64,000 nucleotides of DNA. Source: Escherichia phage FL08. This document shows, in pieces, positions 567 to 49,629 of this stretch. The stretch lies in the sequence record PP400785; one strand, written 5' to 3'. Made by a program: the position numbers and the translations under genes. The first letter of the stretch is position 1. Each line of letters opens with the position of its first letter. Below the pieces are notes generated by a model that worked only from the letters and a program-made list of their open reading frames with translations, did not search any database and was not told where the DNA came from.

Positions 567-784
567 TAATAAATTTCCTTCCAGTAAGTTGTGCCATCTT
601 CAGTGATTTCACGAAATACACCGTAAATTGGTTGTTTATCCCCAACCTTTTCATACACATAAACCGAAGTCAAGTGAGTAAACTTAGCAGTGTGTTCCTT
701 TTGAACTACTACCAAATCTGGATCGAATAATACATCTTCAAATTCATCATTAGTGCAATTCTGAACAATTTTACGTTTCATCAT
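566..784 (-). CDS. hypothetical protein (72 aa)
   Basis: ORF abutting downstream gene with stop/start overlap typical of T4 translational coupling. Confidence 0.4.
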
Positions 785-854
785 AATTTCCTCATTAATT
801 GAACATTGGAGCGATGCGTTTCAGAAGAGTATCAGCGCACCTTTAACGAATTAT

Positions 855-5140: not shown

Positions 5141-5448
5141 CGTAAATTCCCTGCAATTGGTATACTAACAATACGCCCAGTATCTAAAATTCGCTGATAT
5201 AATCTTTGTGTGTCTACATCAGGCTTAACATGTTTAACTTCTATTTTATTAAACCAAAATTTACGTGGAGTCTCAACTAATCTTGGAATTCCCTTACCTA
5301 AAGCTAGTCGATACTGCTCTTTAAGAGTAGTAAATACTTTATCAGCAATATTCCATTCAAAAAATACAGCAGGACGATGTTCATCAAGTGGAACTGGCGC
5401 TGTAAATCCGTCTTTGTCTCGGTAAACTATCGCATATACATAAACCAT
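5137..5448 (-). CDS. hypothetical protein (dda.1 position)
   Basis: 103-aa ORF overlapping dda start by 4 nt. Confidence 0.45.
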   Translation of the reverse strand: MVYVYAIVYRDKDGFTAPVPLDEHRPAVFFEWNIADKVFTTLKEQYRLALGKGIPRLVETPRKFWFNKIEVKHVKPDVDTQRLYQRILDTGRIVSIPIAGNLR

Positions 5449-5449
5449 A

Positions 5450-6196
5450 TTATCCTCGGATAAGTTTAAAAATTGAACAATTTAGCGGGTATCCTCTTTT
5501 CAGTTTAAGTTTATCAATAAAAGACAAATTTTGATATCGCTCTACACCTTGAATAATTTTATCACACATATCATATTGCATTTCTGCTTCTGACAGCTTT
5601 TTCACAATTTTCCAATCCGAGCCTTTAAGAAGAACGTTCAATTTAACAACTTCAGCGCCTTCTGCTATGCGAGAACCATCAATACGTGCTTTAAGTGCTA
5701 TAATCCTTAGCTTAATGTCAGAGGTCTGTTTTGATTTAGAAAGCTGAGAAATGTGTTCAATTCGGTTTTCACGTTTTTTCTGTATAGCTTTAATTTGATT
5801 ATAAGTCTTTTTGATTTTAGCCCATTTCTTTTCATCTAAATTTAGTTTATGAACTTTTTTCGCAGATGAACGACCAATTCGCAAAGCAAATAAATCACGC
5901 TTTTCAATCAACTCTTCTAAAGTATAATCAGAACGAAATGTATTATACTTTTTCTTTACTGCAATAACATTCCCTTTAATGTATCCAACGTTATTATCAA
6001 AACGTTCTAATGATAATTTCTCTCCTTCAATACGATTATCAAAAGGTTCTCCCGAGTAAGCGCAAACTTTTTGATCTAAAATGTTCTTAATGTAATTGAA
6101 GTCTAAGTTAAAATCTTTAGAACGTCTTTTTGCAGATGCCTGAGTGTGCTCTAAACGACGTTTAATTTTACGAATTTGATTATTAGACAGTTTCAT
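5450..6196 (-). CDS. hypothetical basic protein, possible Srd-like (T4 srd position)
   Basis: 248 aa Lys/Arg-rich ORF between dda.1 and mod genes; assignment by position and size only. Confidence 0.4.
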   Translation of the reverse strand: MKLSNNQIRKIKRRLEHTQASAKRRSKDFNLDFNYIKNILDQKVCAYSGEPFDNRIEGEKLSLERFDNNVGYIKGNVIAVKKKYNTFRSDYTLEELIEKRDLFALRIGRSSAKKVHKLNLDEKKWAKIKKTYNQIKAIQKKRENRIEHISQLSKSKQTSDIKLRIIALKARIDGSRIAEGAEVVKLNVLLKGSDWKIVKKLSEAEMQYDMCDKIIQGVERYQNLSFIDKLKLKRGYPLNCSIFKLIRG

Positions 6197-6319
6197 ATTT
6201 TTCTCACATCTTACGGACGGTTAACTACTTATACTATAACATTTTTACTTTAACTTGTAAACAACTTTATGTAAAAATGCTTTAAAACTTTCGTGGTATA
6301 ATGAATCTAAGTCCTTCCA

Positions 6320-9100: not shown

Positions 9101-9435
9101 TCACAAGATGTAGATGAACAACTAGAATCACAAGAACTTCCACATGAATCGCCCGTCCACACATGAACAGGAACATTAGTATCATATGAATCAGAACTAG
9201 ACTGTGTATTCTGCGTATTAGATGATGTAGGTGTTGACCAACGCCAAGGATTTTTATAATATTCCTGGGCTTCTTCATAAGTCATAGTAACTGCTTCTAC
9301 TGTTCCATCTCCCATATAAACATATTCAACTACAGTTAAAGGAAGGTAGTCATTTGAAATAGGAACTACACCTTCTCCGGGAGTTGTAGAGAAAAAATCC
9401 GTAAAGAAACTTTTAAACCAATTAAAGATAAACAT
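9097..9435 (-). CDS. hypothetical protein with Cys/Ser-rich C-terminal tail
   Basis: Start moved to MFIFNWF (TAATG stop-start overlap with upstream ORF); hydrophobic N-terminus; C-terminus [18 protein letters not shown]. Confidence 0.45.
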
Positions 9436-9647
9436 TACAAAAAGCCTCTTTGAAATTCGACTCTTTGAAATCCACCCCAATCAGTGTATCGCATTTCAGC
9501 ATTGAACTCGACTGAACCATCTGCATGCATCATGAATGAATGCGTGACGACATCACAATCCCAGCTTTTCATACCCCATTTATCAGCGATAGCTTTATCA
9601 AGAACCTTCTGGAGGTCTTCATTTGGTTTAATCCAACGATTTAACAT
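9435..9647 (-). CDS. hypothetical protein (70 aa)
   Basis: small ORF upstream of Cys-rich ORF; stop overlaps its start. Confidence 0.4.
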   Translation of the reverse strand: MLNRWIKPNEDLQKVLDKAIADKWGMKSWDCDVVTHSFMMHADGSVEFNAEMRYTDWGGFQRVEFQRGFL

Positions 9648-9718
9648 AGTGTTCTCCTCTATAAGATATTTTTATTATACCACACTCATTTTGACATGTA
9701 AACCATAAAATGAAAAAA

Positions 9719-9736
9719 GGAATCCCGGAGGATTCC
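9719..9736 (-). terminator. intrinsic terminator hairpin downstream of soc
   Basis: ggaatcc-cgga-ggattcc inverted repeat followed by U-run on minus transcript. Confidence 0.6.
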
Positions 9737-9745
9737 TTAAATTAT

Positions 9746-10003
9746 TTAACCACCGACACCAGGTGTCGGTGTAACAGTCCAAAGACCTTCATTAGCAGTG
9801 ATCCATTCAGTACGCTGATTTTCTTCATATACTGTAGAATATGCTGCTTTTTCAGAAGGGAATGTCTGATAATGAGCATCAGAAATTTTGTGAACATCAG
9901 AATAAAGAGGGAAAGCTACAGAAATTTCTTTACCCTGAATTGTACCACCATCAACTGCTTGGTCAAATGTTTTGATATTAACATAACCACGAGTACTAGC
10001 CAT
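9746..10003 (-). CDS. soc: small outer capsid protein Soc
   Basis: Sequence MASTRGYVNIKTF...ISVAFPLYSDVHKIS...YQTFPSEKAAYSTVYEENQRTEWI recognisable as T4 Soc. Confidence 0.85.
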   Translation of the reverse strand: MASTRGYVNIKTFDQAVDGGTIQGKEISVAFPLYSDVHKISDAHYQTFPSEKAAYSTVYEENQRTEWITANEGLWTVTPTPGVGG

Positions 10004-10033
10004 GTAATTCTCCTTTTATTTAAATTACATGAT

Positions 10034-10041
10034 TATTTATA
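10034..10041 (-). promoter_or_regulatory. late promoter (TATAAATA) for soc
   Basis: Minus-strand TATAAATA about 30 nt upstream of soc ATG; matches T4 gp55-dependent late promoter consensus. Confidence 0.6.
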
Positions 10042-10071
10042 ATAAATTCTCGCGGCTTTTAAGACGAGCTG

Positions 10072-10590
10072 TTAATAACCTCGGTCTTGACGAGCGAAAT
10101 TTTCAGCATTTTTCAGATAATAAAGTTTAAAGATTTCTTCTGCTGTAAGACCAAGACCTTGAAACATGTTCAGAACAAAATGGAGAATATCAATCATTTC
10201 GAATTTGATTTCTAACTGGTCCTGTGGAGACAAATCAGTAATCAGAGTTTCACGACGTTCACCATGCTGAGCTTTCCACGGCTTCCATACAGCAGATGCA
10301 TCTTTTTCGCCATTGCTCATACCACCAAGAGAAGTCAGAAGTTCGCGGAATTCATCATCAATATAATCTTTCTGATTACGCAGCCAATCAACAACTTCAC
10401 CTGCAGTAGCCAAATCATCAGGATGACGGTTATATTCAGGTTTATCTTTAGCTAAACGAACTTGCAGAGATTTCTGCATATCAAGCATTACCTGCAGCGG
10501 GTCTTTTTCATCACCGAGAATATCCCAATATTCATTTTGAGCTTTATCAGCGCCTTCGATCAGTTGACTACATTCGTTGAAATGTGGCAT
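10072..10590 (-). CDS. 56: dCTPase / dCTP pyrophosphatase (gp56, MazG-like)
   Basis: 172 aa; position between soc and 61; all-alpha MazG-like composition; T4 gp56 about 171 aa. Confidence 0.8.
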   Translation of the reverse strand: MPHFNECSQLIEGADKAQNEYWDILGDEKDPLQVMLDMQKSLQVRLAKDKPEYNRHPDDLATAGEVVDWLRNQKDYIDDEFRELLTSLGGMSNGEKDASAVWKPWKAQHGERRETLITDLSPQDQLEIKFEMIDILHFVLNMFQGLGLTAEEIFKLYYLKNAENFARQDRGY

Positions 10591-10591
10591 G

Positions 10592-11242
10592 TTATTTTTC
10601 CTTTCTTATGAAGTTTTCTATCATATGTCTATAGCAGATATTAGGATAACCTGCCTTGACAGCTATTTTATTAAATTTTGTGCGCTTAGGTCTATTATTA
10701 TAAACCCATAATTCATAAAGCGCATCATAACTATTCCATATTTCTCCTCGCCTAGGATTTGGTAAACCATATCGAGGTGAATTTTTACCGCTAAATCTTC
10801 CTTTTCGGGCTTTACTCATATTAGCCTTGGCTTCATCGGATATAATTTTACCTTTATGAGCTAGACGCATTTTGGCTTTAGTTTCTTCTGGGGTCTTTTT
10901 GCCTTTAATCCATGACGGCTTGCCATATCTAGGATTATTTTCACCCGAGAAAAGAACAGAGTTTTGGATTTTAAGGGTTTCTATTAATCTACTTGTTAAT
11001 TTAACACCTTTATTATATCGCATTAAATTTACAGCATAATGCAATCCTCTCACATCTGGATATATTTTAGTTAATAATCTATGAGCTATAAAATGCTCAC
11101 GCGCAGTTAACTCAACAAGATTGTTTTTGTCATCTGCTCCTCCTATACATCTAGGAATTATATGATGGCGTTCTTTATATCCGCCAAGATGCCGGCATTT
11201 AGCTTTTGTAATTAAAGCCGAGTAAATTTTTTGGTAATTCAC
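10592..11242 (-). CDS. HNH homing endonuclease (Mob-like)
   Basis: N-terminal HHIIPRCIGG...NLV.LT..EH..AH HNH motif; C-terminal NUMOD-like repeats (NPRYGK, SPRYGL). Confidence 0.8.
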   Translation of the reverse strand: MNYQKIYSALITKAKCRHLGGYKERHHIIPRCIGGADDKNNLVELTAREHFIAHRLLTKIYPDVRGLHYAVNLMRYNKGVKLTSRLIETLKIQNSVLFSGENNPRYGKPSWIKGKKTPEETKAKMRLAHKGKIISDEAKANMSKARKGRFSGKNSPRYGLPNPRRGEIWNSYDALYELWVYNNRPKRTKFNKIAVKAGYPNICYRHMIENFIRKEK

Positions 11243-11313
11243 ATATATCCTTTCAATTCATGGGTTAGTAGATTAATTATACAATAAATATATAAAAGCA
11301 ATAAGGAGGACAT

Positions 11314-11514
11314 ATGGTACAAAAATTAATGGCACTTGTTGATGCCATAAAAGGTAATAAAAAACGTATAGCTTTTACTATTTCTGCTATGGTAGGAATT
11401 TTACTCTGGAACTTTATTTTATCACCCATTGCAATTGCACATGGTATTAATATTCCAGTAGTTACTCTTGATACATTCGTAGATTTAGCATTTGCTTTAG
11501 TTGGGTTAATTTAA
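11314..11514 (+). CDS. small hydrophobic (membrane) protein, 66 aa
   Basis: Plus-strand ORF preceded by consensus Shine-Dalgarno (AAGGAGG, 5-nt spacer); two predicted TM segments. Confidence 0.5.
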   Translation: MVQKLMALVDAIKGNKKRIAFTISAMVGILLWNFILSPIAIAHGINIPVVTLDTFVDLAFALVGLI

Positions 11515-23697: not shown

Positions 23698-24672
23698 TCA
23701 CTTCCACTGCATTTCGCATGCTAATTGAATGAAAAGATAAGCTAAATGCAATTCAGTATTAGCTGCAATACCATGATACTGATTATTTTCGCCGACAATT
23801 TCGTACATACGAATAATACTCTGTGGTGTTACACGTGAATAGATTTCTTCGGCAAGTTTACCCACGAACCACGAATAATCGGCTGCATATTTTGGTGCTA
23901 AAGCTCTGAGTTGTTTAACATCTTTATTTTTGAGAGACTCAAGAACATCATCAATAGCACCACGATCGTTAGTAACCAGTGATAAAATACCAGCATCCAA
24001 AACACCTTTAGATGAATAACTATCGAGCTCACCAATAGTTTTACGAAAATCAGGAAAATTCTTTTTAACCAAAGCTGCTACAACTTTCATATCAGCTATA
24101 GCAATTCCTTCATGCTTGCAGATTTCAGTCAATCGACGAATCATCTGCTTCATCATTTCAATTTTATCTTCATCAGTCGGTTGACCGAATGTAATAACAC
24201 GACAGCGTGACTGAAGCGGTTTAATAATACCATCAATATTGTTAGCAGTAATAATAATACTACAGTTTGAACTATAAGCTTCCATAAAGGAACGAAGATG
24301 TCGCTGAGACTCTGCTAACCCTGAACGGTCAAATTCATCAATAACGATTACTTTTTGACGACCATCAAATGAAGCTGCACTAGCAAAATTAGTCAAAGGA
24401 CCACGAACGAAATCAATTTTACAATCTGACCCATTCACAAACATCATATCAGCATTTACATCATGACACAATGCTTTTGCTACAGTCGTTTTACCTGTTC
24501 CTGGAGAAGGAGAATGAAGAATAATATGTGGAATTTTACCTTTACTTGTAATAGATTTAAAGGTTTCTTTATCAAAGGCGGGAAGAATACATTCATCGAT
24601 AGTAGATGGACGATATTTCTGTTCAAGAATGTGTTCTTTTTCATTTACGGTAATCATAATTTCCTCATTCAA
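23698..24672 (-). CDS. 44: clamp loader ATPase subunit (gp44, AAA+)
   Basis: 324 aa; Walker [15 protein letters not shown] Walker B, SRC-like motif. Confidence 0.9.
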
Positions 24673-24708: not shown

Positions 24709-25395
24709 TTAAAAATCATGGGTAGAATCAGCTTCAAGAGCTACTACATAATTCGCGTGTTCACCTTCAAATTTAGCAGCACCTTGTTTACCTTTTGCCC
24801 AGAGCAGAAGTTTATAATTTCCTGGTTGCATTTTCATATTTGCCATATTGATAATGAAATTAAATGTATTTTCACCATCATAATCACCAAGAGTCAAAGA
24901 ATATTTAACACGGGTCAGAGCAGAATCTTCTACTTTATTAAAACCGTTAATTACGATTTTACCTTCTTTTACTGTGATAGCAATTGTATCAATTTGCAGA
25001 CCACGAGATACACGTAACAGTTGTTGAAGGTCTTCAGCTTTAATTTCGGTAACAACAGATGCTACCGGGAATGGAATTGGTTTATTAGGAGCAACTACTG
25101 TACTTGGATCGGCTGCTGGCCAAAAAATTGTTGAGCGAGCATCAGCAATTTTAATATTTCCATCTTCTGACTGGGAAATTTCTGCATCATCATTAACTAG
25201 AGACAGAATACCGAGAAAACCGTTCAAATCGTAAATTGCTACATCAAAATCAATAACGTCAGAAATATTTGCTTCCGCATAAGTTGTACCATTAACTGCG
25301 CGAGTCATAATAAATTGACCGGATTTAAGCATAATACCAGAGTTAATAGTAGCGAAATTTTTAAGCAGAGCAGTAGTATCTTTAGACAGTTTCAT
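24709..25395 (-). CDS. 45: sliding clamp (gp45)
   Basis: 228 aa; sequence recognisable as T4 gp45. Confidence 0.9.
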   Translation of the reverse strand: MKLSKDTTALLKNFATINSGIMLKSGQFIMTRAVNGTTYAEANISDVIDFDVAIYDLNGFLGILSLVNDDAEISQSEDGNIKIADARSTIFWPAADPSTVVAPNKPIPFPVASVVTEIKAEDLQQLLRVSRGLQIDTIAITVKEGKIVINGFNKVEDSALTRVKYSLTLGDYDGENTFNFIINMANMKMQPGNYKLLLWAKGKQGAAKFEGEHANYVVALEADSTHDF

Positions 25396-25450
25396 GTAAT
25401 TTCCTTCAATTCAAATGAGATTTAATTTTATAACTAATTTAATAAAGCAA

Positions 25451-25840
25451 TTAACGATTAAAATCAGCTGCGATTGTTTCGGCAACAATTTGAGCAGCAA
25501 CAATTAGACGTTCATCTGCATTGCCGCAATATTCATCTTCAAGGCGTTCACCACATGAAGTCATAATAAATTTAGCACCAGCGTTTAGGGATTCTGTAGT
25601 ATGTTTGCGCATTAGTTCAATCCATTTATTACTTACTTCACGATCGATAGCTTCATAATACGCATGACGAGCAGGTGCAGATTTAATTTTGTTCTGAATA
25701 ACTTCCATTGCGTTATCAGAAAGAGACAAAACCCATGCTCGACGAATTTTATTTTGGTTTTGTGGATTTGATTCAGAACGCACGTGTTTTGGCTGAATAT
25801 CTTTTACATCAACAGTATAATTCACAGTAATTTTAGTCAT
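25451..25840 (-). CDS. rpbA: RNA polymerase binding protein RpbA
   Basis: 129 aa (T4 RpbA size), located just upstream of 45. Confidence 0.7.
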
Positions 25841-25849
25841 AATACACCT

Positions 25850-26041
25850 TTAGTCATAATAATCAGTAACAGTCCAAGCTTCATTTCTATTGGACATTAT
25901 TTTTGTATATTCTGCTTTAAATGCATTCCTAAGCATAGATTCAGTAACTATATGCTCTTCATTAGAAAAATTATTTCTCAGAATATATCGTTTTATTTCA
26001 GGAATAGTTAATAGATGCTGTCCGGTTGAATATTCTGCCAC
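25850..26041 (-). CDS. hypothetical protein (63 aa)
   Basis: small ORF upstream of rpbA (45.2-like position). Confidence 0.4.
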   Translation of the reverse strand: MAEYSTGQHLLTIPEIKRYILRNNFSNEEHIVTESMLRNAFKAEYTKIMSNRNEAWTVTDYYD

Positions 26042-26092
26042 AATTCCTCCGTATAAATATGTTTATCACTCGCTGTATCAAAAGGATATGTT

Positions 26093-26809
26093 ATGAATTA
26101 TAAACTAATTTATGAAAAGTTAATCTCTAATGCTAAATCTCGAAAACTTGATTGCTATACTGAATCTCATCACATTATACCACGCTGTTTAAATGGCAGC
26201 GATGATGCTTCAAACTTAGTAGATTTAACACCAGAAGAGCACTATGTAGCTCATCAACTTTTAGTAAAAATTTATCCTTCTGAACCAAAATTAGTCTATG
26301 CTGCTAACATGATGACAGTTTCCACGAAATACGCTAAACGCAACAATAAAACTTTCGGTTGGATTCGTCGTAAACTCTGGGAAATAGAAAAGAATAAAGA
26401 ATTCTCCCAAGAGACACGAAAGAAAATGTCTGATGCAGTAGCTAATAAAGCAAGACTAACTTGTCCTCATTGCGGTAAGTCTGGATTAAGCGGGAATATG
26501 AATCGATGGCATTTTGATAACTGCCCGAATCACCCTAATCCTAAAGTTAGACCACCGATGTCTAAAGAACACAGAAATAATATCTCAAACGGGCTTAAAG
26601 CAATCATTCTTGAAGAAACATCCTGCGAATTCTGCGGAATGATAGGCAAGAAATGCGTTATCGCAGCGCATAGAAATTTCTGCAAGAAAAATCCAAATGG
26701 ACGCAAGAAAACTGAAAAGACTGGTACTTGCGTCCATTGTGGTAAAGTTACCACTTTCGGAAATTTATCAAGGTGGCATAATGATAACTGTAAATATAAA
26801 CCTAGCTAA
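26093..26809 (+). CDS. HNH homing endonuclease (Mob-like) with C-terminal Cys-rich zinc-finger repeats
   Basis: Plus strand; N-terminal ESHHIIPRCLNGSDD...NLV.LT.EEH..AH HNH motif shared with the two minus-strand HNH genes; CPHCG / CEFCG / CVHCG repeats. Confidence 0.8.
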   Translation: MNYKLIYEKLISNAKSRKLDCYTESHHIIPRCLNGSDDASNLVDLTPEEHYVAHQLLVKIYPSEPKLVYAANMMTVSTKYAKRNNKTFGWIRRKLWEIEKNKEFSQETRKKMSDAVANKARLTCPHCGKSGLSGNMNRWHFDNCPNHPNPKVRPPMSKEHRNNISNGLKAIILEETSCEFCGMIGKKCVIAAHRNFCKKNPNGRKKTEKTGTCVHCGKVTTFGNLSRWHNDNCKYKPS

Positions 26810-28490
26810 TCTTAGCTAAACTAAATCTACCAACTTTTTCCATTTGAATATGCTGACCATATTCTTGTGGGTCATGGTCTTTATGCGAAATTATGAAGAA
26901 GTTGGTATCCTTCAAACCATCTAAAATTTTAGCTACATTTTTAATACCTTCAGCATCAAATGCACCGTCATACACTTCATCAAGAAATAAACAACTTATT
27001 TTAACACCTGAAACTTTTTCAGCAATATCACGCCAAGTAAATAAAAGAGCAATATCAATTCGTGCTTTTTCGCCTTGACTGAATGAAGCATAACTAAAAT
27101 CTTCGCGACCGCGGGATTTAATTGTCTCATTAAATTCTTCATCTAATGTAAACACATAATCCGCTTCCATTATTTTAAGATAATGGTTAATCTGCTTATT
27201 AAATAATGGAATGTACTTTTTAATAATAGCACCTTTAATACCAGAATCTTTGAGCATATCAGTCAAAATTCCTCGGTGGTATTTTTCCATTACCAAATTA
27301 GTTTTTGTCTTAACAATTTTATCAAGTTCTTCTTGAAGCAGTGCTATTTCATCAGCATGGTCAATAAACTCAGAAGATGCTTTTTCTATAGCTGCTTTAA
27401 CTTTTTTGGCTTTATCTACCGTCGTGATTAGAGATTGCTTTTTATTGCGAATATCATTTGCCAACGACTGTTGGGTTTTAATATTATCTCGGTATTCATC
27501 AACAAGAACTTTTAAATTATCACGATGTGTTGAAAGCTGTTCAAACGAATGAGTACATTCAGAAACTTTATCTTTAATTTTAGAAACAACTTTATCACCG
27601 GAACTTAATTGTGACAAACAGGTTGGACATAATCCACCTTCGTGATACATATTAATGACTTTATTATACGAGTCAATTTTCGATTTAATTAAAAATGCTT
27701 CTTGGCCGATTTTATTAAATGCATCAGTCGGGTCTTCATCCAAAACAATATTAACTAATCTTTCATTAGCTTCTTCTATTTCCGATTTTAGCGTTCTAGC
27801 TTCTTTTGCCAAATCATCGTACATATTTTGCAGACGAGTAAGGTTGTCACCCGTTAATTTTTTCTGGCGTTCAACGTTATCATTATATATTTTAATTTGT
27901 TGGATAATACTATCTCTTTTAACATCAAGCACTTGGTTTTGTGAATTTAATTCACGTATTAGCGCTTTATTAAGCTTATCCATTTCAGCTAATGTTCCTA
28001 CCTCAAGCAGGTCTTCCACAAGCTTTCTTCGTGCAGGGGTCGACAAACCCATGAAAGGGGTATACCCTGCTGTACCAAGGACAACAATCTGCTTGAAACT
28101 GGCATATGACATTCCGATAAGCTGTTCAAATTCTGCTTGGAAATCTTTACTGCTGGCAGATTCATTAAGACGTGTACCGTTAACGGTGATTTCGAAAACG
28201 TTTGGTTTTTGTCCTCTTTTGATATAGTACTTTTTCTCATCATATTCCATCCACAGTTCAACTAAAAGTTCTTTCTTATTTGTGCTGTTTATTAATTGAC
28301 CTTTCTTTACATCACGGAATGGCTTGCCAAAAAGCCCAAATGTGATGGCTTCTAACATAGTAGACTTACCACCGCCATTTCGTCCAGTAATAAGAGTTTT
28401 TTGAACCTTATCTAATTGAATGTCAATAGGATTTCCACCTACTGACATTATATTTTGATACCTAACTCGGTTTAGTTTAAAATTCTTCAC
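26802..28490 (-). CDS. 46: recombination endonuclease subunit gp46 (Rad50/SbcC-like)
   Basis: 562 aa; Walker A GRNGGGKST, central coiled coil with CPTC zinc hook, C-terminal signature/Walker B LFLDE. Confidence 0.9.
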   Translation of the reverse strand: MKNFKLNRVRYQNIMSVGGNPIDIQLDKVQKTLITGRNGGGKSTMLEAITFGLFGKPFRDVKKGQLINSTNKKELLVELWMEYDEKKYYIKRGQKPNVFEITVNGTRLNESASSKDFQAEFEQLIGMSYASFKQIVVLGTAGYTPFMGLSTPARRKLVEDLLEVGTLAEMDKLNKALIRELNSQNQVLDVKRDSIIQQIKIYNDNVERQKKLTGDNLTRLQNMYDDLAKEARTLKSEIEEANERLVNIVLDEDPTDAFNKIGQEAFLIKSKIDSYNKVINMYHEGGLCPTCLSQLSSGDKVVSKIKDKVSECTHSFEQLSTHRDNLKVLVDEYRDNIKTQQSLANDIRNKKQSLITTVDKAKKVKAAIEKASSEFIDHADEIALLQEELDKIVKTKTNLVMEKYHRGILTDMLKDSGIKGAIIKKYIPLFNKQINHYLKIMEADYVFTLDEEFNETIKSRGREDFSYASFSQGEKARIDIALLFTWRDIAEKVSGVKISCLFLDEVYDGAFDAEGIKNVAKILDGLKDTNFFIISHKDHDPQEYGQHIQMEKVGRFSLAKIS

Positions 28491-28750: not shown

Positions 28751-28937
28751 TATCTAAAATGTTGAAGTTAAAAGATACAGCCCAATCTGTACAGACCGTA
28801 ACTTTTTTAATACAATTATCTTCAACTTCTAGTGGTTCAAACCAATATTCAATAATTTCTTTATGCCCAATATCATCTTTTACTTCGCATTCAAAATGCT
28901 GACTCATCATAACATTTTTAAATTCATCAAAAGTCAT
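28674..28937 (-). CDS. hypothetical protein (87 aa or shorter)
   Basis: small ORF between 47 and 46; overlaps neighbour so start may be internal. Confidence 0.35.
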   Translation of the reverse strand: MTFDEFKNVMMSQHFECEVKDDIGHKEIIEYWFEPLEVEDNCIKKVTVCTDWAVSFNFNILDNDTPKSLRDMAVSCIKDAYCEVFDI

Positions 28938-29953
28938 TGTGTTGCCTCTACATATAACTGATTTGCATATTGAATAAGTGCTTCACGGTCAGAATCAGTG
29001 ATGTCTGGAATTGCATTAATGTATTCTTCCATCAACGTCTGAAGCGATTGAACTTCAACTTCTTCACTATCATCTGACCCGACAGAGTTATCAATCTTTG
29101 ACACAACTCGTAATGAATGCACAACTTTTTCTAGTTCAGATTCGAACTTCGTCAGATTTTTGTCTACTTCAGTTACTATAACACGTACTGATAGATTTGT
29201 AAAATCTTTATAGTCAATTTTTCCTTTAAATGGATAATGAATTCTACGATGCCAGGTAGTGTTGTTTGGAATAAATTCCATTCGTTCTGTTTCTGTATCA
29301 AACATCCAGAACCCACGAGGGTCATTCTCGTCACCTGCAGTTAGTGTCCATGGTGTCCCAATATACTTGACGTTTGCAGCCTCAGAAATAGTATGGAAGT
29401 GACCAGACCACACTTCTTTATAAGTCTTAAGGAAATCAGGTTCAAGACCATGAGATTTCATTCCTTTATAAAAATAAAATCCGTTCAGTTCCCAGTGACC
29501 AACACAAAAAGAAGCAGATGAAGTTTTGATATGCTCAAGAATTTCACCAGTATTTTCTTCACACATCCAAGGAATTAAATCAATCAAACATCCATCAAAA
29601 TCTACTGTAGTAGGCTTATCATACACTTTAACATTAGGATATTTAGCCAAAAGCTCAGTAGAGGCATTTGGATGCATTACATTTTTGTAGTGGAGATCGT
29701 GATTTCCTACAATAGTATGTAATGTGATTCCAGCGTCATCAAGCATTTGAACTATTTCACGGGCAAACTCCATAGTTTTATGCGTGATTGCTTTTCGCAC
29801 ATCAAAAATATCACCATATTGAATCCATACAGTAATTCCATTTTTCTTAGAATATTCTATCGCTTGCTTAATTCCATCAATTTGAATACCGCGAATCCAC
29901 TCATCATCAGCTTTAACGCCTAAATGCCAATCACCCAAGTTTAGTATTTTCAT
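28934..29953 (-). CDS. 47: recombination endonuclease subunit gp47 (Mre11/SbcD-like)
   Basis: 339 aa (T4 gp47 size); calcineurin-like phosphoesterase motifs GDWHLG, GDIFD, GNHD. Confidence 0.9.
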   Translation of the reverse strand: MKILNLGDWHLGVKADDEWIRGIQIDGIKQAIEYSKKNGITVWIQYGDIFDVRKAITHKTMEFAREIVQMLDDAGITLHTIVGNHDLHYKNVMHPNASTELLAKYPNVKVYDKPTTVDFDGCLIDLIPWMCEENTGEILEHIKTSSASFCVGHWELNGFYFYKGMKSHGLEPDFLKTYKEVWSGHFHTISEAANVKYIGTPWTLTAGDENDPRGFWMFDTETERMEFIPNNTTWHRRIHYPFKGKIDYKDFTNLSVRVIVTEVDKNLTKFESELEKVVHSLRVVSKIDNSVGSDDSEEVEVQSLQTLMEEYINAIPDITDSDREALIQYANQLYVEATQ

Positions 29954-30554
29954 GGTGTCTTTTCCATCCTAATTTAGCTGCTTTTGAAACCAGTTCTTTA
30001 ATTTTTCCTTTTGTCCATTCAGGACCAGGAGGTTCATGACATAACATTTGCTTAACTCCGTTATTATACCATTTTTTACCTTTATTATGTGATGAAGCTT
30101 TAAATTTATTTGACCTTCCTTTTACATAACCTTCTGGAATATAAGGCAAAAAGGCAGATTTTCCTGTTAATGGATCATGTGAATGTATATTTCCTTTACA
30201 ATTATGAGAACCATATAATGGATGATTTTGTCCTTTATTATCTCTTCCAAACGAACCTTTTGGAGCAGCATATGACATATTAAAGAATAATGGATTTTTA
30301 ACTGCATCATGCAATCGTTGATAATATAACTCGCATTTAATAGCTTCTTCACGCGTATCAAATTCAGCTAAAATGCATGAATCAAATAAGTGAGGATTAT
30401 CTGAAAGCTCTTTATTATAAATTTTCTTATACTTTTTAGATAAAACTGAACCATGATATCCAGCTAAATGCCTATCTAAAGACGTAGATCCAATATAAAA
30501 AGGAGGAAGTTTATCTCCACTATATATTGTTAAATAAGTTATATATTTTTTCAT
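29931..30554 (-). CDS. GIY-YIG homing endonuclease (Seg-like)
   Basis: N-terminal YITYLTIY...FYIGST GIY-YIG motif; C-terminal NUMOD-like GxxHPLYG repeats; inserted between 47 and a-gt. Confidence 0.65.
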   Translation of the reverse strand: MKKYITYLTIYSGDKLPPFYIGSTSLDRHLAGYHGSVLSKKYKKIYNKELSDNPHLFDSCILAEFDTREEAIKCELYYQRLHDAVKNPLFFNMSYAAPKGSFGRDNKGQNHPLYGSHNCKGNIHSHDPLTGKSAFLPYIPEGYVKGRSNKFKASSHNKGKKWYNNGVKQMLCHEPPGPEWTKGKIKELVSKAAKLGWKRHHENTKLG

Positions 30555-47855: not shown

Positions 47856-48866
47856 TCATTTATAATAACTTCGGTGGTTTTCAAGATAGACCTTCTCAAG
47901 GAAGTCATCCCAGAAACCCATGTCTACTTTTTGCTGCATACCATTCTTAGAAGCTTCAGTAGATGCTGCTTCTACTTGATCGACCACATCTTCCAAAAAC
48001 TCTTGAACTGTTTTAAATGGATGTTTACCCAACTTCACGTCGAGAATAAATGGAGCATCTTGAAGTGGATAGACTAAGTCACCAGTTTTGTAAATTTCCA
48101 ATAGTTGGAGTCCACCACGACAAGCATGACTCAGAGCTTTCCAGTCAATACCTTCGTTGGCTTCGGCCTTACGAGCGCGTTCACCGTATTCAGCATCTAA
48201 TTTGTTCAGTGACTGCTTAAGCTCAATAAGAGAAAGCGTTGTCTGATATTTACGACCCAACACAGTGTAAAACGTCTGTGGGCCTGTTTTCTCATGATTA
48301 TGAAACACCCATTCACAAAATTCGTTTTCTGGAAGACGATGCTTAATATCTTCAACTTTAGTGCGACGTTGCTTAATAGAACCATCTTCTTGGTAATCAA
48401 CCCATTGCTCAGGGATTTGATTAACTACTTTCAATACATCACGTAATGCAGCCAAACGAGAACCCTTGACACCGTATTTAGAAGCTTGCTTGCGGACATA
48501 TCCTAAATATGATTTCATGTTAGTCGTATAAAAACGAGAACGGTTGTCTTGAATAAACTTCCACACATCAGGCAAATCAGATTTAACCACTAGCTCAGGT
48601 GGAGTGTGAAGCATATCTAATGCTACAGTTTCACCATCTGCTGCTAATTTAAAGAAATATTTAAGACTGTATAGTTCATGGTCAATATCATCTTTAGTGT
48701 TTTTAGATGATGTGTTGTTAGTGTTTTTACTCATGTGCTCTTTGACATTTCCGATAAGAATATCGCGAGCAGGAGGAACAAAAATTTCTTTAAAATCTAC
48801 ATCAGATTCTGGGGTAGAAGTTCCATAAAGATGACTACCAAAATAAGACTTAACTACAGTTTTCAT
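47856..48866 (-). CDS. Pol-beta-superfamily nucleotidyltransferase-like protein
   Basis: N-terminal G-S-x10-D-x-D signature (GSHLYGTSTPESDVD); start taken at MKTVVK (track ORF extends to 48902). Confidence 0.5.
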   Translation of the reverse strand: MKTVVKSYFGSHLYGTSTPESDVDFKEIFVPPARDILIGNVKEHMSKNTNNTSSKNTKDDIDHELYSLKYFFKLAADGETVALDMLHTPPELVVKSDLPDVWKFIQDNRSRFYTTNMKSYLGYVRKQASKYGVKGSRLAALRDVLKVVNQIPEQWVDYQEDGSIKQRRTKVEDIKHRLPENEFCEWVFHNHEKTGPQTFYTVLGRKYQTTLSLIELKQSLNKLDAEYGERARKAEANEGIDWKALSHACRGGLQLLEIYKTGDLVYPLQDAPFILDVKLGKHPFKTVQEFLEDVVDQVEAASTEASKNGMQQKVDMGFWDDFLEKVYLENHRSYYK

Positions 48867-49629
48867 TATTAGACCTTTCATAATCTTCATTAAATTGTAC
48901 AATCAATCGATGATAATTAGATTTTGGATATCCTAATTTACTTATATAAGTTCCGAATGACCCACGTTTAGGTCTATTTAATTTAATCCATAACTTATAA
49001 AGTAAGTCATAGTCTTGCCAATGTTTACCAGTTCTTTGTCTAATTTTAGATGAATTTGATTGTTTCTTTTTAGTTTCAAAATTATTCAAAGATTTTTTGA
49101 CTGCAGCAGAGTGTTTTTCTTTAACTCCCGGTCGTTTAAAAGCAGCTTTCACCCCTTTAGATATTTTTTCTTTAACTTCCGGTTTGTTTTGTGCTTCTAA
49201 CTGGGATTCTGAAATTTTAGCCCTTATTTCAGGAAGACTTAATGTTATCGAACGTTTTTCTCTGTATTCATTAGACTTCCACATTTCTTTCATTGTATTA
49301 GAATGTATTTTTGAAAATTTTTCTCTAACTAACTGATATCCTCTTGAAGTTAATTTGAGATTTCTTCCTAAAGAATCTTCTCCAAAATTATAAAATGACC
49401 ACCATGCATAAATTAATCCAGGCGAATTATAATGAATTTTAGCTAAAAGCCAATGGGCTATAAAATGCTCTCTAGCTGTTAATAAAACTAGATTATCAGA
49501 ATCATCATTACCACCAATACAAGATGGAATAATATGATGCTTTTCCGTATAAAAATTTAATTTAGATTTATCTAATTTTCTGAGTTTTCCTTTCTTAATT
49601 AAATTATTATATACTTTAGTATAATTCAT
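48850..49629 (-). CDS. HNH homing endonuclease (Mob-like; mobD position)
   Basis: N-terminal EKHHIIPSCIGGNDD...NLV.LTAREHFIAH HNH motif; Lys-rich C-terminal repeats. Confidence 0.8.
   Translation of the reverse strand: MNYTKVYNNLIKKGKLRKLDKSKLNFYTEKHHIIPSCIGGNDDSDNLVLLTAREHFIAHWLLAKIHYNSPGLIYAWWSFYNFGEDSLGRNLKLTSRGYQLVREKFSKIHSNTMKEMWKSNEYREKRSITLSLPEIRAKISESQLEAQNKPEVKEKISKGVKAAFKRPGVKEKHSAAVKKSLNNFETKKKQSNSSKIRQRTGKHWQDYDLLYKLWIKLNRPKRGSFGTYISKLGYPKSNYHRLIVQFNEDYERSNNENCS

Follow-up and report, generated by a model that had tools for sequence, protein, structure and literature searches.

All genes surrounding the reading frame at 26093..26809 in the 64,000 nucleotides of Escherichia phage FL08 DNA analysed here (the window) are encoded on the minus strand, while the frame itself is on the plus strand. 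This raises the question of what kind of gene has settled there against the direction of its neighbours, and whether it serves itself or the phage. An earlier note on this DNA had taken the frame, with exactly the extent that we find (ATG start, 238 residues), for a homing endonuclease gene inserted beside recombination-nuclease genes. This is supported by the polymorphism of the site, by the Mob-type domain of the protein, and by a linked tract of gene 46 that is found on unrelated backbones. With a probability of about 85%, we consider the product to be a site-specific homing endonuclease of the T-even mob type that is functional and encoded by a free-standing gene; its target is probably the 3' end of gene 46.

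The window is a segment of a T4-like (Tequatrovirus) genome, and the Escherichia phage teqhal is the top match over 25400-27400 (99.3% identity). The names of the surrounding genes (Table 1) were assigned by comparison with T4 and RB32. The gene had been placed between rpbA and 46, which is correct for the right side only, because the left neighbour is 45.2 and not rpbA. The convergent overlap with the end of gene 46 was confirmed and comprises 8 nt, the stop codon of the endonuclease gene (TAA) being at 26807-26809 and that of gene 46 (TAG, minus strand) at 26802-26804. It is also true that this is the only sizeable plus-strand gene in the window, because every other plus-strand ORF that reaches 90 residues overlaps a minus-strand ORF of this minimum length. 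The ORF at 9710-10042, which seemed to occupy a gap and was considered as a second plus-strand gene, was rejected as a shadow of soc (9746-10003, minus strand), the gene of the small outer capsid protein. The endonuclease gene is not intron-encoded: the cassette that contains it lies between two genes and splits neither of them, and the ORFs of both neighbours are complete.

Table 1. Features at and around the endonuclease gene (positions in the window).
Feature	Position	Strand	Remarks
gene 44	23698-24672	-	
gene 45	24709-25395	-	
rpbA	25451-25840	-	
45.2	25850-26041	-	left neighbour of the endonuclease ORF
gene 46	26802-28490	-	right neighbour, convergent with the endonuclease ORF
46.1/46.2		-	listed between 46 and 47
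gene 47	28934-29953	-	
cassette without counterpart in empty-site relatives	26036..26821	.	786 bp replacing 72 bp of T4
new 5' end of 45.2	26039..26050	-	GTG start 26039-26041; ribosome-binding site GGAGGAA 26044-26050
late promoter, T4 consensus	26052..26059	+	TATAAATA, 33 nt upstream of ATG
Shine-Dalgarno	26083..26086	+	AGGA, 6 nt before ATG; read from the sequence
HNH (beta-beta-alpha-metal) catalytic core	26162..26254	+	aa 24-54; E24, H26, H27, N41, H50, H54
zinc finger 1	26462..26524	+	aa 124-144, CX2CX12HX3C, CPHCGKSGLSGNMNRWHFDNC
candidate MotA-type middle promoter	26577..26602	-	TGCTTTA-N13-TATTAT, antisense within the endonuclease ORF
zinc finger 2	26624..26683	+	aa 178-197, CX2CX11HX3C, CEFCGMIGKKCVIAAHRNFC
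zinc finger 3	26729..26791	+	aa 213-233, CX2CX12HX3C, CVHCGKVTTFGNLSRWHNDNC
new 3' end of gene 46	26802..26822	-	..GRF-SLAKIS-stop; T4 ..GRF-TVMV-stop
HEG-linked divergent tract	26822..26996	-	~175 bp, last ~60 codons of gene 46
candidate core of the homing/immunity site	26928..26966	-	39 bp; codons G-A-F-D-A-E-G-I-K-N-V in HEG+ genomes

The N-terminal ~95 residues are predicted to fold into a Mob-type HNH nuclease domain. The HNH core that had been noticed before (ESHHIIPRC...NLVDLTPEEHYVAH) is present, and its key residues belong to the positions that are invariant in an alignment of 38 homologues (E24, H26, H27, P30, G35, N41, H50, and H54). The motif ExHH[IV]xP was found in all of the 120 best homologues. 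Searching a large database yielded 2299 homologues at E<=1e-5, and the protein matches PHROG 655 'homing endonuclease' with an E-value of 1.1e-68. The score against the Pfam HNH profile (PF01844) is below the gathering cut-off (16.9 vs 21.4 bits). The family profile built from the 38 aligned homologues matches the HNH motif of the solved McrA 6ghc (E 7.8e-4) and also the En domain of group II intron maturases and the HNH domains of IscB and Cas8-HNH; the NCBIfam IscB model matches residues 19-104 of the protein (E 3.8e-5). The closest relations of the domain in T4 are MobE (43% identity over 120 aa, E 2e-29) and MobB (44% over 126 aa, E 6e-30), and nothing similar to either is found beyond these stretches, the resemblance to MobB ending after about residue 126. 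Around the HNH motif, the AF2 model of the protein (pLDDT 90.8) contains two strands (24-27 and 42-45) followed by a helix (47-60).

The C-terminal half is predicted to be a DNA-binding array composed of two NUMOD3-like segments and three I-TevIII-type CCHC fingers. The NUMOD3-like segment SQETRKKMS (aa 105-113) precedes finger 1, and SKEHRNNIS (aa 157-165) precedes finger 2. Pfam NUMOD3 (PF07460) itself scores under its gathering cut-off here (12.6 vs 20.4 bits), and it is carried by many homologues. The earlier note had described three Cys-rich repeats of the CxxC type at the C-terminus. Their number and position are correct, but the description is incomplete, because each repeat is a full CX2CX11-12HX3C finger homologous to those of I-TevIII. 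Finger 1 is 50% identical over 28 aa to an I-TevIII finger, and fingers 2 and 3 together align with the T4 I-TevIII remnant (BLASTP, 38% over 63 aa, E 1e-8). Each finger is a beta-hairpin plus helix in the AF2 model, and the ligands of finger 3 (C213, C216, H229, and C233) are invariant in the 38 aligned homologues. At least one CCHC finger is present in 118 of the 120 best homologues and three fingers are present in 25 of them; the remaining ones combine one finger with zero to six NUMOD3-like repeats. From these combinations and from the matches to MobE, MobB, and I-TevIII it follows that the protein joins a Mob nuclease domain to an I-TevIII-type finger array, an architecture that is best described as modular shuffling of known parts. 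In this it resembles the T-even mob-type enzymes, which share the N-terminal Mob domain and differ in a family-specific C-terminal domain.

How the gene is set into the genome becomes evident from comparison with T4 and other T-even phages, by which the earlier note had hoped to define the boundaries of the insertion. Homology with 11 empty-site genomes stops at 26035 and restarts at 26822, so that the cassette between these positions has no counterpart in the relatives. The boundaries were taken from BLAST and from end-free pairwise alignment; a MAFFT global alignment against T4 misplaced the large gap. The replaced T4 DNA corresponds to L003:745-816 and the net gain is therefore 714 bp, in agreement with the spans of the database matches (1715 bp when occupied and 1001 bp when empty). 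The cassette is built to be harmless: it supplies a start codon and a ribosome-binding site to 45.2 and the terminal codons and the stop codon to gene 46. The beginning of 45.2 reads ATG-GAA-TAT in T4 and GTG-GCA-GAA-TAT in the window, the extra Ala codon (26036-26038) following just 3' of the new start region on the minus strand. The right junction exists in a second version in RB51, where gene 46 ends with ..SVATIN-stop.

The site is clearly polymorphic within Tequatrovirus. The insert was found in 59 of 526 records matching the flanks, and the T4 empty site has 501 full-length matches, of which about 445 are uninterrupted and the rest have the longer span. Overall, Tequatrovirus comprises about 58-60 occupied and about 445 empty records, T4, T2, and T6 being among the empty ones. 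Presence at this position in all relatives, with no insertion polymorphism, would have spoken against the proposal of the earlier note, and the empty records show the opposite. Six further loci retrieved from IMG/VR with gp45.2 all have empty sites, and these were used as additional empty-site genomes. When only the flanks were used as query, the occupied records among the matches listed were at least 98% identical to the window and the empty ones at most 94.0%, in line with linkage of the insert to its flanks.

Six occupied (HEG+) and 11 empty (HEG-) genomes were aligned. All 20 fixed differences between the groups are found at 26828-26993, and there are none in the 636 bp leftward and none from 26994 to 28490. 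Within the tract that starts at the right boundary of the cassette, the divergence is 24.6% between the groups (minimum 17.1%), 2.3% within the occupied genomes, and 12.3% within the empty genomes. The far flanks on both sides differ by 2.0-2.5% between the groups, by about 2% within the occupied, and by 2-3% within the empty genomes. In these flanks, HEG+ genomes are mostly closest to HEG- genomes, and the cassette thus moves between backbones as a unit that includes about 175 bp of gene 46. Such movement is the population signature expected of homing with co-conversion, and we infer that the tract is a co-conversion and immunity tract.

Gp46 is the essential Rad50-like nuclease subunit, and by our reading of its sequence the tract appears to cover the region from Walker B to the His-loop of the ATPase (..LFLDEVYDG..FIISHKD..), including the D-loop segment. 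The last ~60 residues of the Tequatrovirus gp46 alleles are only 66-74% identical to each other, which equals the level between genera, and the remainder of the protein is 98-99% identical within the genus. However, this variability is not restricted to the comparison of occupied with empty genomes. The T4-type and T2-type alleles of the tract, both from empty sites, differ by up to 22.9%, and the 3' end of gene 46 is therefore a mosaic hot spot in its own right. This weakens a simple reading of the tract in terms of immunity, and the linkage could reflect a recombination hot spot instead.

Within the tract, the positions that best separate the alleles are concentrated in a short segment. Ten of the 12 positions that distinguish the HEG+ alleles, uniform in both Tequatrovirus and Jiaodavirus, from the likewise uniform T2-type and JD18-type empty alleles are located in the 39-bp segment listed last in Table 1. 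Here these empty alleles encode S-A-T-D-V/A-E-G-V-K-A-I, with a D in front. The segment is thus a candidate for the core of the target and of the immunity determinant. Two observations complicate this assignment. The T4-type empty allele resembles the occupied type within the candidate core. In addition, Dhakavirus MX01 encodes an orthologue of the endonuclease and yet has a T2-like gene 46 tract, so that the determinant of targeting and immunity may lie elsewhere or may vary between sublineages.

Orthologues are also found at the same junction and on the opposite strand in other genera, between 45.2 (or rpbA) and 46. These include the Jiaodavirus phages Phi_KR8 and Roth04, Dhakavirus MX01 (about 60% identity to the protein of the window), Yersinia phage MHG19, whose protein is 63% identical, and two metagenomic T4-like contigs with proteins of 56% and 42% identity; in one of these contigs the gene order left of 45.2 is different. 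Seven of about 144 Jiaodavirus records are occupied. The empty site of this genus is a 4-nt overlap of the stop codon of 46 and the start codon of 45.2, and the cassette splits exactly this junction and also provides 45.2 with a new N-terminus. The occupied and empty Jiaodavirus alleles of gene 46 again differ over the final ~50 codons of this gene, and the segment CLFLDEVYDGAFDAEGIKNV is common to the gene 46 alleles of occupied Jiaodavirus and occupied Tequatrovirus. The enzyme is specialised for the 45.2|46 junction. A recent insertion, as the earlier note had suggested, is not supported for the lineage as a whole, given the orthologues with 42-65% identity at the same junction and the synonymous differences of up to 11% among the Tequatrovirus copies. 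For six of these copies pN/pS is 0.02-0.09, and pS reaches 0.11. The protein is thus under purifying selection, and the Tequatrovirus copies do not derive from one very recent event.

The gene has its own expression signals, which point to expression late in infection. The T4 late-promoter consensus TATAAATA occurs a single time on the plus strand of the 64 kb, upstream of this gene, and its spacing is unchanged in each of the nine copies examined, among them the Jiaodavirus and Dhakavirus orthologues that are only 68-75% identical at the nucleotide level. The ribosome-binding site is kept as GGA or GAGGA in the orthologues. Scanning the region 25800-27000 for sigma-70 promoters and intrinsic terminators revealed nothing above the expectation from shuffled sequences. 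The endonuclease genes of T4 are all co-oriented with their neighbours except for segD, which does not have its own promoter (Edgell et al., PMC2988022). Compared with these, the arrangement described here, in which a mob gene runs against its neighbours behind a conserved late promoter of its own, is mildly unusual.

Taken together, the following course of events can be proposed. Late in infection, its own promoter would drive transcription of the gene in the direction opposite to that of the early and middle genes around it. During mixed infection with a relative that has an empty junction, the enzyme would nick or cut the genome of this relative. The site would most likely be within the last ~60 codons of gene 46, our best guess being a position some 105-145 bp away from the edge of the cassette at 26822. 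Recombinational repair off the HEG-bearing genome would then introduce the 786-bp cassette and, along with it, about 175 bp of gene 46 from the donor. The donor's own allele would presumably be spared from cutting because it differs at about 25% of the positions of the tract. Cleavage activity (as a nick or a double-strand break), the exact target, and immunity are predictions, and so is late expression, which is deduced from a promoter motif.

It could even be possible, although we regard it as rather unlikely, that the cassette does more than spread itself and is a vehicle that swaps a functional module of gp46 between genera. This idea is based on the finding that homing would replace the last ~60 residues of gp46 with an allele as divergent as those of different genera, and on the segment shared by the occupied alleles of both genera. 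The T4-type allele, which is similar to the HEG-linked one in this segment, might then be a resistant allele that this conflict has left behind. If the idea were true, there would be consequences for recombination, for the breakdown of host DNA, or for the evasion of host defences.

The patchy distribution of a homing endonuclease gene might also be the result of ordinary T-even recombination, if the gene had entered only once, was no longer mobile, and had become resident because of parts that its neighbours need. Such parts would be the start codon and ribosome-binding site of 45.2, the terminus of gene 46, and possibly a middle promoter embedded in the ORF. The T4 spacer contains a MotA-type middle-promoter motif directly upstream of 45.2 (TGCTTTA-N11-TATAAT, L003 788->765), which is deleted by the cassette, and the candidate replacement within the endonuclease ORF (26602->26577) is kept in all five other Tequatrovirus copies. 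The embedded motif might perhaps take over the role of the T4 spacer promoter for 45.2-rpbA; there are ten MotA-type motifs of such kind in the 64 kb. Embedded promoters favour the retention of seg and mob genes (Edgell et al., PMC2988022), and the mosaic hot spot at the 3' end of gene 46 exists even among empty genomes. However, the embedded motif is absent from the other genera. The low pN/pS, which applies to the whole ORF, and the invariant catalytic residues and zinc ligands argue for selection on the protein and not only on DNA signals. In addition, the cassette is found on backbones whose flanks are closest to those of empty genomes, the tract has a sharp boundary, and at least five further lineages are occupied at this same junction. 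Therefore, a resident gene is an improbable explanation, and an endonuclease that still moves by homing is strongly preferred.

Still less probable is that the protein mainly serves the phage itself as a DNA-binding protein or nuclease, homing being secondary. It could then be a late regulator, with an antisense transcript that lowers gp46, or a nuclease directed against the DNA of competing phages or of the host, as in marker exclusion. The gene converges on 46 with the short overlap described above and there is no strong terminator between the two in the window, so that a late transcript would be antisense to gene 46. However, a stem-loop that separates the convergent stop codons in Dhakavirus and Jiaodavirus would limit read-through there. 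I-TevI acts as an autorepressor in addition to being an endonuclease (PMC2988022), and the 5' UTR of the endonuclease gene contains an element, TTTATCaNTCGCnGTATCA, that is conserved in all genera examined. An operator of the I-TevI style, meaning a resemblance of the promoter or 5' UTR to the alleles of the empty site, was nevertheless rejected. The best candidate, with 13 of 14 positions identical (TCGCTGTATCAAAA vs TCGCTGAATCAAAA of T2, near position 26960 of the window), is only about two standard deviations above shuffled sequences (z about 2, not significant) and is unmatched in Jiaodavirus. Most relatives do without the gene, which is therefore dispensable for the phage. Finally, a chance ORF or mis-annotation on a non-coding strand, which the orientation against every other gene in the window might suggest, is refuted by the 2299 homologues, the strong purifying selection, the confident structural model, and the location of the ORF on DNA that is simply absent from the relatives.

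MobE and MobB of T4 are among the known systems closest to the endonuclease of the window. Their nuclease domains are 43-44% identical to it over the N-terminal ~120 residues, and their genes are likewise free-standing in spacers between conserved genes and present or absent among close relatives. As is the case for gene 46 here, the essential gene adjacent to mobE, nrdB, differs between carriers and non-carriers (PMC2790892). MobE, the one mob protein with in vivo evidence, introduces an HNH-dependent, strand-specific nick into nrdB of T2 and promotes its own inheritance (PMC2790892); the activity of the protein of the window is instead deduced from its sequence. MobE also differs in having only 141 residues and no zinc fingers, and its gene points the same way as its neighbours and lacks a separate promoter, whereas the gene of the window runs against its neighbours, has its own conserved late promoter, and encodes three CCHC fingers.

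I-TevIII, the endonuclease of the nrdB group I intron of phage RB3, of which T4 has a truncated remnant, is built in the same order of an HNH nuclease followed by tandem CX2CX12-13HX3C fingers. The fingers of the RB3 enzyme bind zinc and are required for DNA binding, and the enzyme, acting as a dimer, cuts both strands and leaves 3' overhangs of 2 nt (PMC1865063). It is, however, intron-encoded, has two fingers, and targets nrdB, while the gene described here is free-standing, has three fingers, and is located at 45.2|46. With respect to orientation there is a parallel in segD, the only homing endonuclease gene of T4 directed against its neighbours (PMC2988022). SegD is a GIY-YIG enzyme without an identifiable promoter of its own, in contrast to the HNH enzyme with its conserved late promoter.

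The endonuclease gene is already known. It entered GenBank with the RB32 genome, and it is an ordinary gene of its kind, with the biology of T-even textbooks. The same gene is found at the same place in RB32 as RB32ORF054w (98-99% nucleotide identity), annotated in GenBank as 'putative site-specific intron-like DNA endonuclease, similar to mobB', and the mob-like HNH genes of RB32 and RB51 have been counted by Petrov et al. (PMC2993671). A full-text literature search found no paper characterising this particular endonuclease. The discovery value is accordingly small, and the present analysis mainly adds testable detail on an uncharacterised enzyme. This detail comprises the boundaries of the cassette, the candidate 39-bp core, the late promoter kept across genera, the combination of a Mob domain with I-TevIII fingers, and the 3' end of gene 46 as a mosaic hot spot between genera to which the element is linked. 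The gene 46 tract also illustrates cleanly, in nature, how co-conversion may shape an essential gene. For enzyme engineering, an HNH nickase or nuclease that has three fingers and a defined long target could be of some help. Copies are also present in RB51, Ozark, PhiZZ30, UFV09, teqhal, and about 50 other records, mostly labelled 'homing endonuclease'; about 58 Tequatrovirus records carry this annotation. The gene of the window does not differ in substance from RB32ORF054w or from its counterparts in RB51, teqhal, and PhiZZ30, apart from RB51, in which the 3' junction is the variant one and the product has 237 residues.

Besides the studied mob-type HNH homing endonuclease gene, which lies between 45.2 and gene 46, FL08 carries an HNH endonuclease gene from another family (PHROG 10820). 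The latter is located between gene 47 and a-gt, and its 3' end shares 23 nt with the start of gene 47. At this position T4 carries the small gene 47.1 instead. The 46-47 nuclease operon of FL08 thus has an endonuclease gene on either side. A further insert, of about 860 bp and missing in both the window and T4, separates genes 46 and 46.1 in T2 and RB51. The 203-aa ORF of the T2 insert is another mob-type HNH gene (PHROG 655, the homing endonuclease family that also includes the studied protein; E 3.4e-35). T-even phages therefore have an endonuclease insertion site at each end of gene 46, and in RB51 both sites are occupied.

Features identified in the window and in the comparison sequences
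Feature	Sequence	Position	Strand	Basis
Second mob-type HNH endonuclease gene, 216 aa	Window	10592-11242	-	PHROG 655, E 2.2e-58
MotA-box middle-promoter motif, directly upstream of gene 45	Window	25425-25449	-	Motif match
5' UTR element TTTATCACTCGCTGTATCA of the studied gene	Window	26060-26079	+	Conservation among endonuclease copies
HNH endonuclease gene of different family	Window	29931-30554	-	PHROG 10820, E 3.1e-94
Third mob-type HNH endonuclease gene, 259 aa	Window	48850-49629	-	PHROG 655, E 2.8e-55
MotA-box middle-promoter motif, directly upstream of 45.2	T4 (L003)	765-788	-	Motif match
Extra DNA between genes 46 and 46.1, ~860 bp	T2 (L010)	4652-5504
Extra DNA between genes 46 and 46.1, ~860 bp	RB51 (L015)	5352-6216

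In endonuclease-free genomes, the 3'-terminal ~60 codons of gene 46 exist as two strongly divergent alleles, a T4-type and a T2-type (window 26881-27020 compared with T4 and T2), which differ by up to 22.9% within 175 bp but by only 2-3% elsewhere. In the segment D-G-x-F-D-A-E-G-I-K-x-V the T4-type allele is similar to the endonuclease-linked allele. In the Klebsiella phage KPV15, a Jiaodavirus with an empty site, gene 46 is frameshifted at its 3' end (L024 2080-2270) and the annotated CDS ends about 60 codons early. The frame is broken within the tract that in other genomes is linked to the endonuclease; this could be an error in the sequencing, or the gene could be genuinely truncated.

MotA-box motifs (TGCTTYA-N11-13-TAnnnT) occur ten times in the whole 64 kb. 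The motif upstream of 45.2 is deleted in every endonuclease-bearing Tequatrovirus genome. The 5' UTR element TTTATCACTCGCTGTATCA is better kept than its surroundings across the Tequatrovirus, Jiaodavirus, and Dhakavirus copies of the endonuclease; a 13/14 match between part of this element and the T2-type gene 46 allele is not significant (z about 2).

Two more mob-type genes are found in the window. The product of the second shares 36% identity with the studied protein over amino acids 1-151, and its gene is directly followed downstream by gene 56 (dCTPase, 10072-10590), with soc nearby. Its site is probably polymorphic, like the 45.2/46 site, because at least 80% of the gene is covered in only 31 of the 781 records matching window 9300-11400. 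The third product is 53% identical to the studied protein over the first ~70 amino acids.
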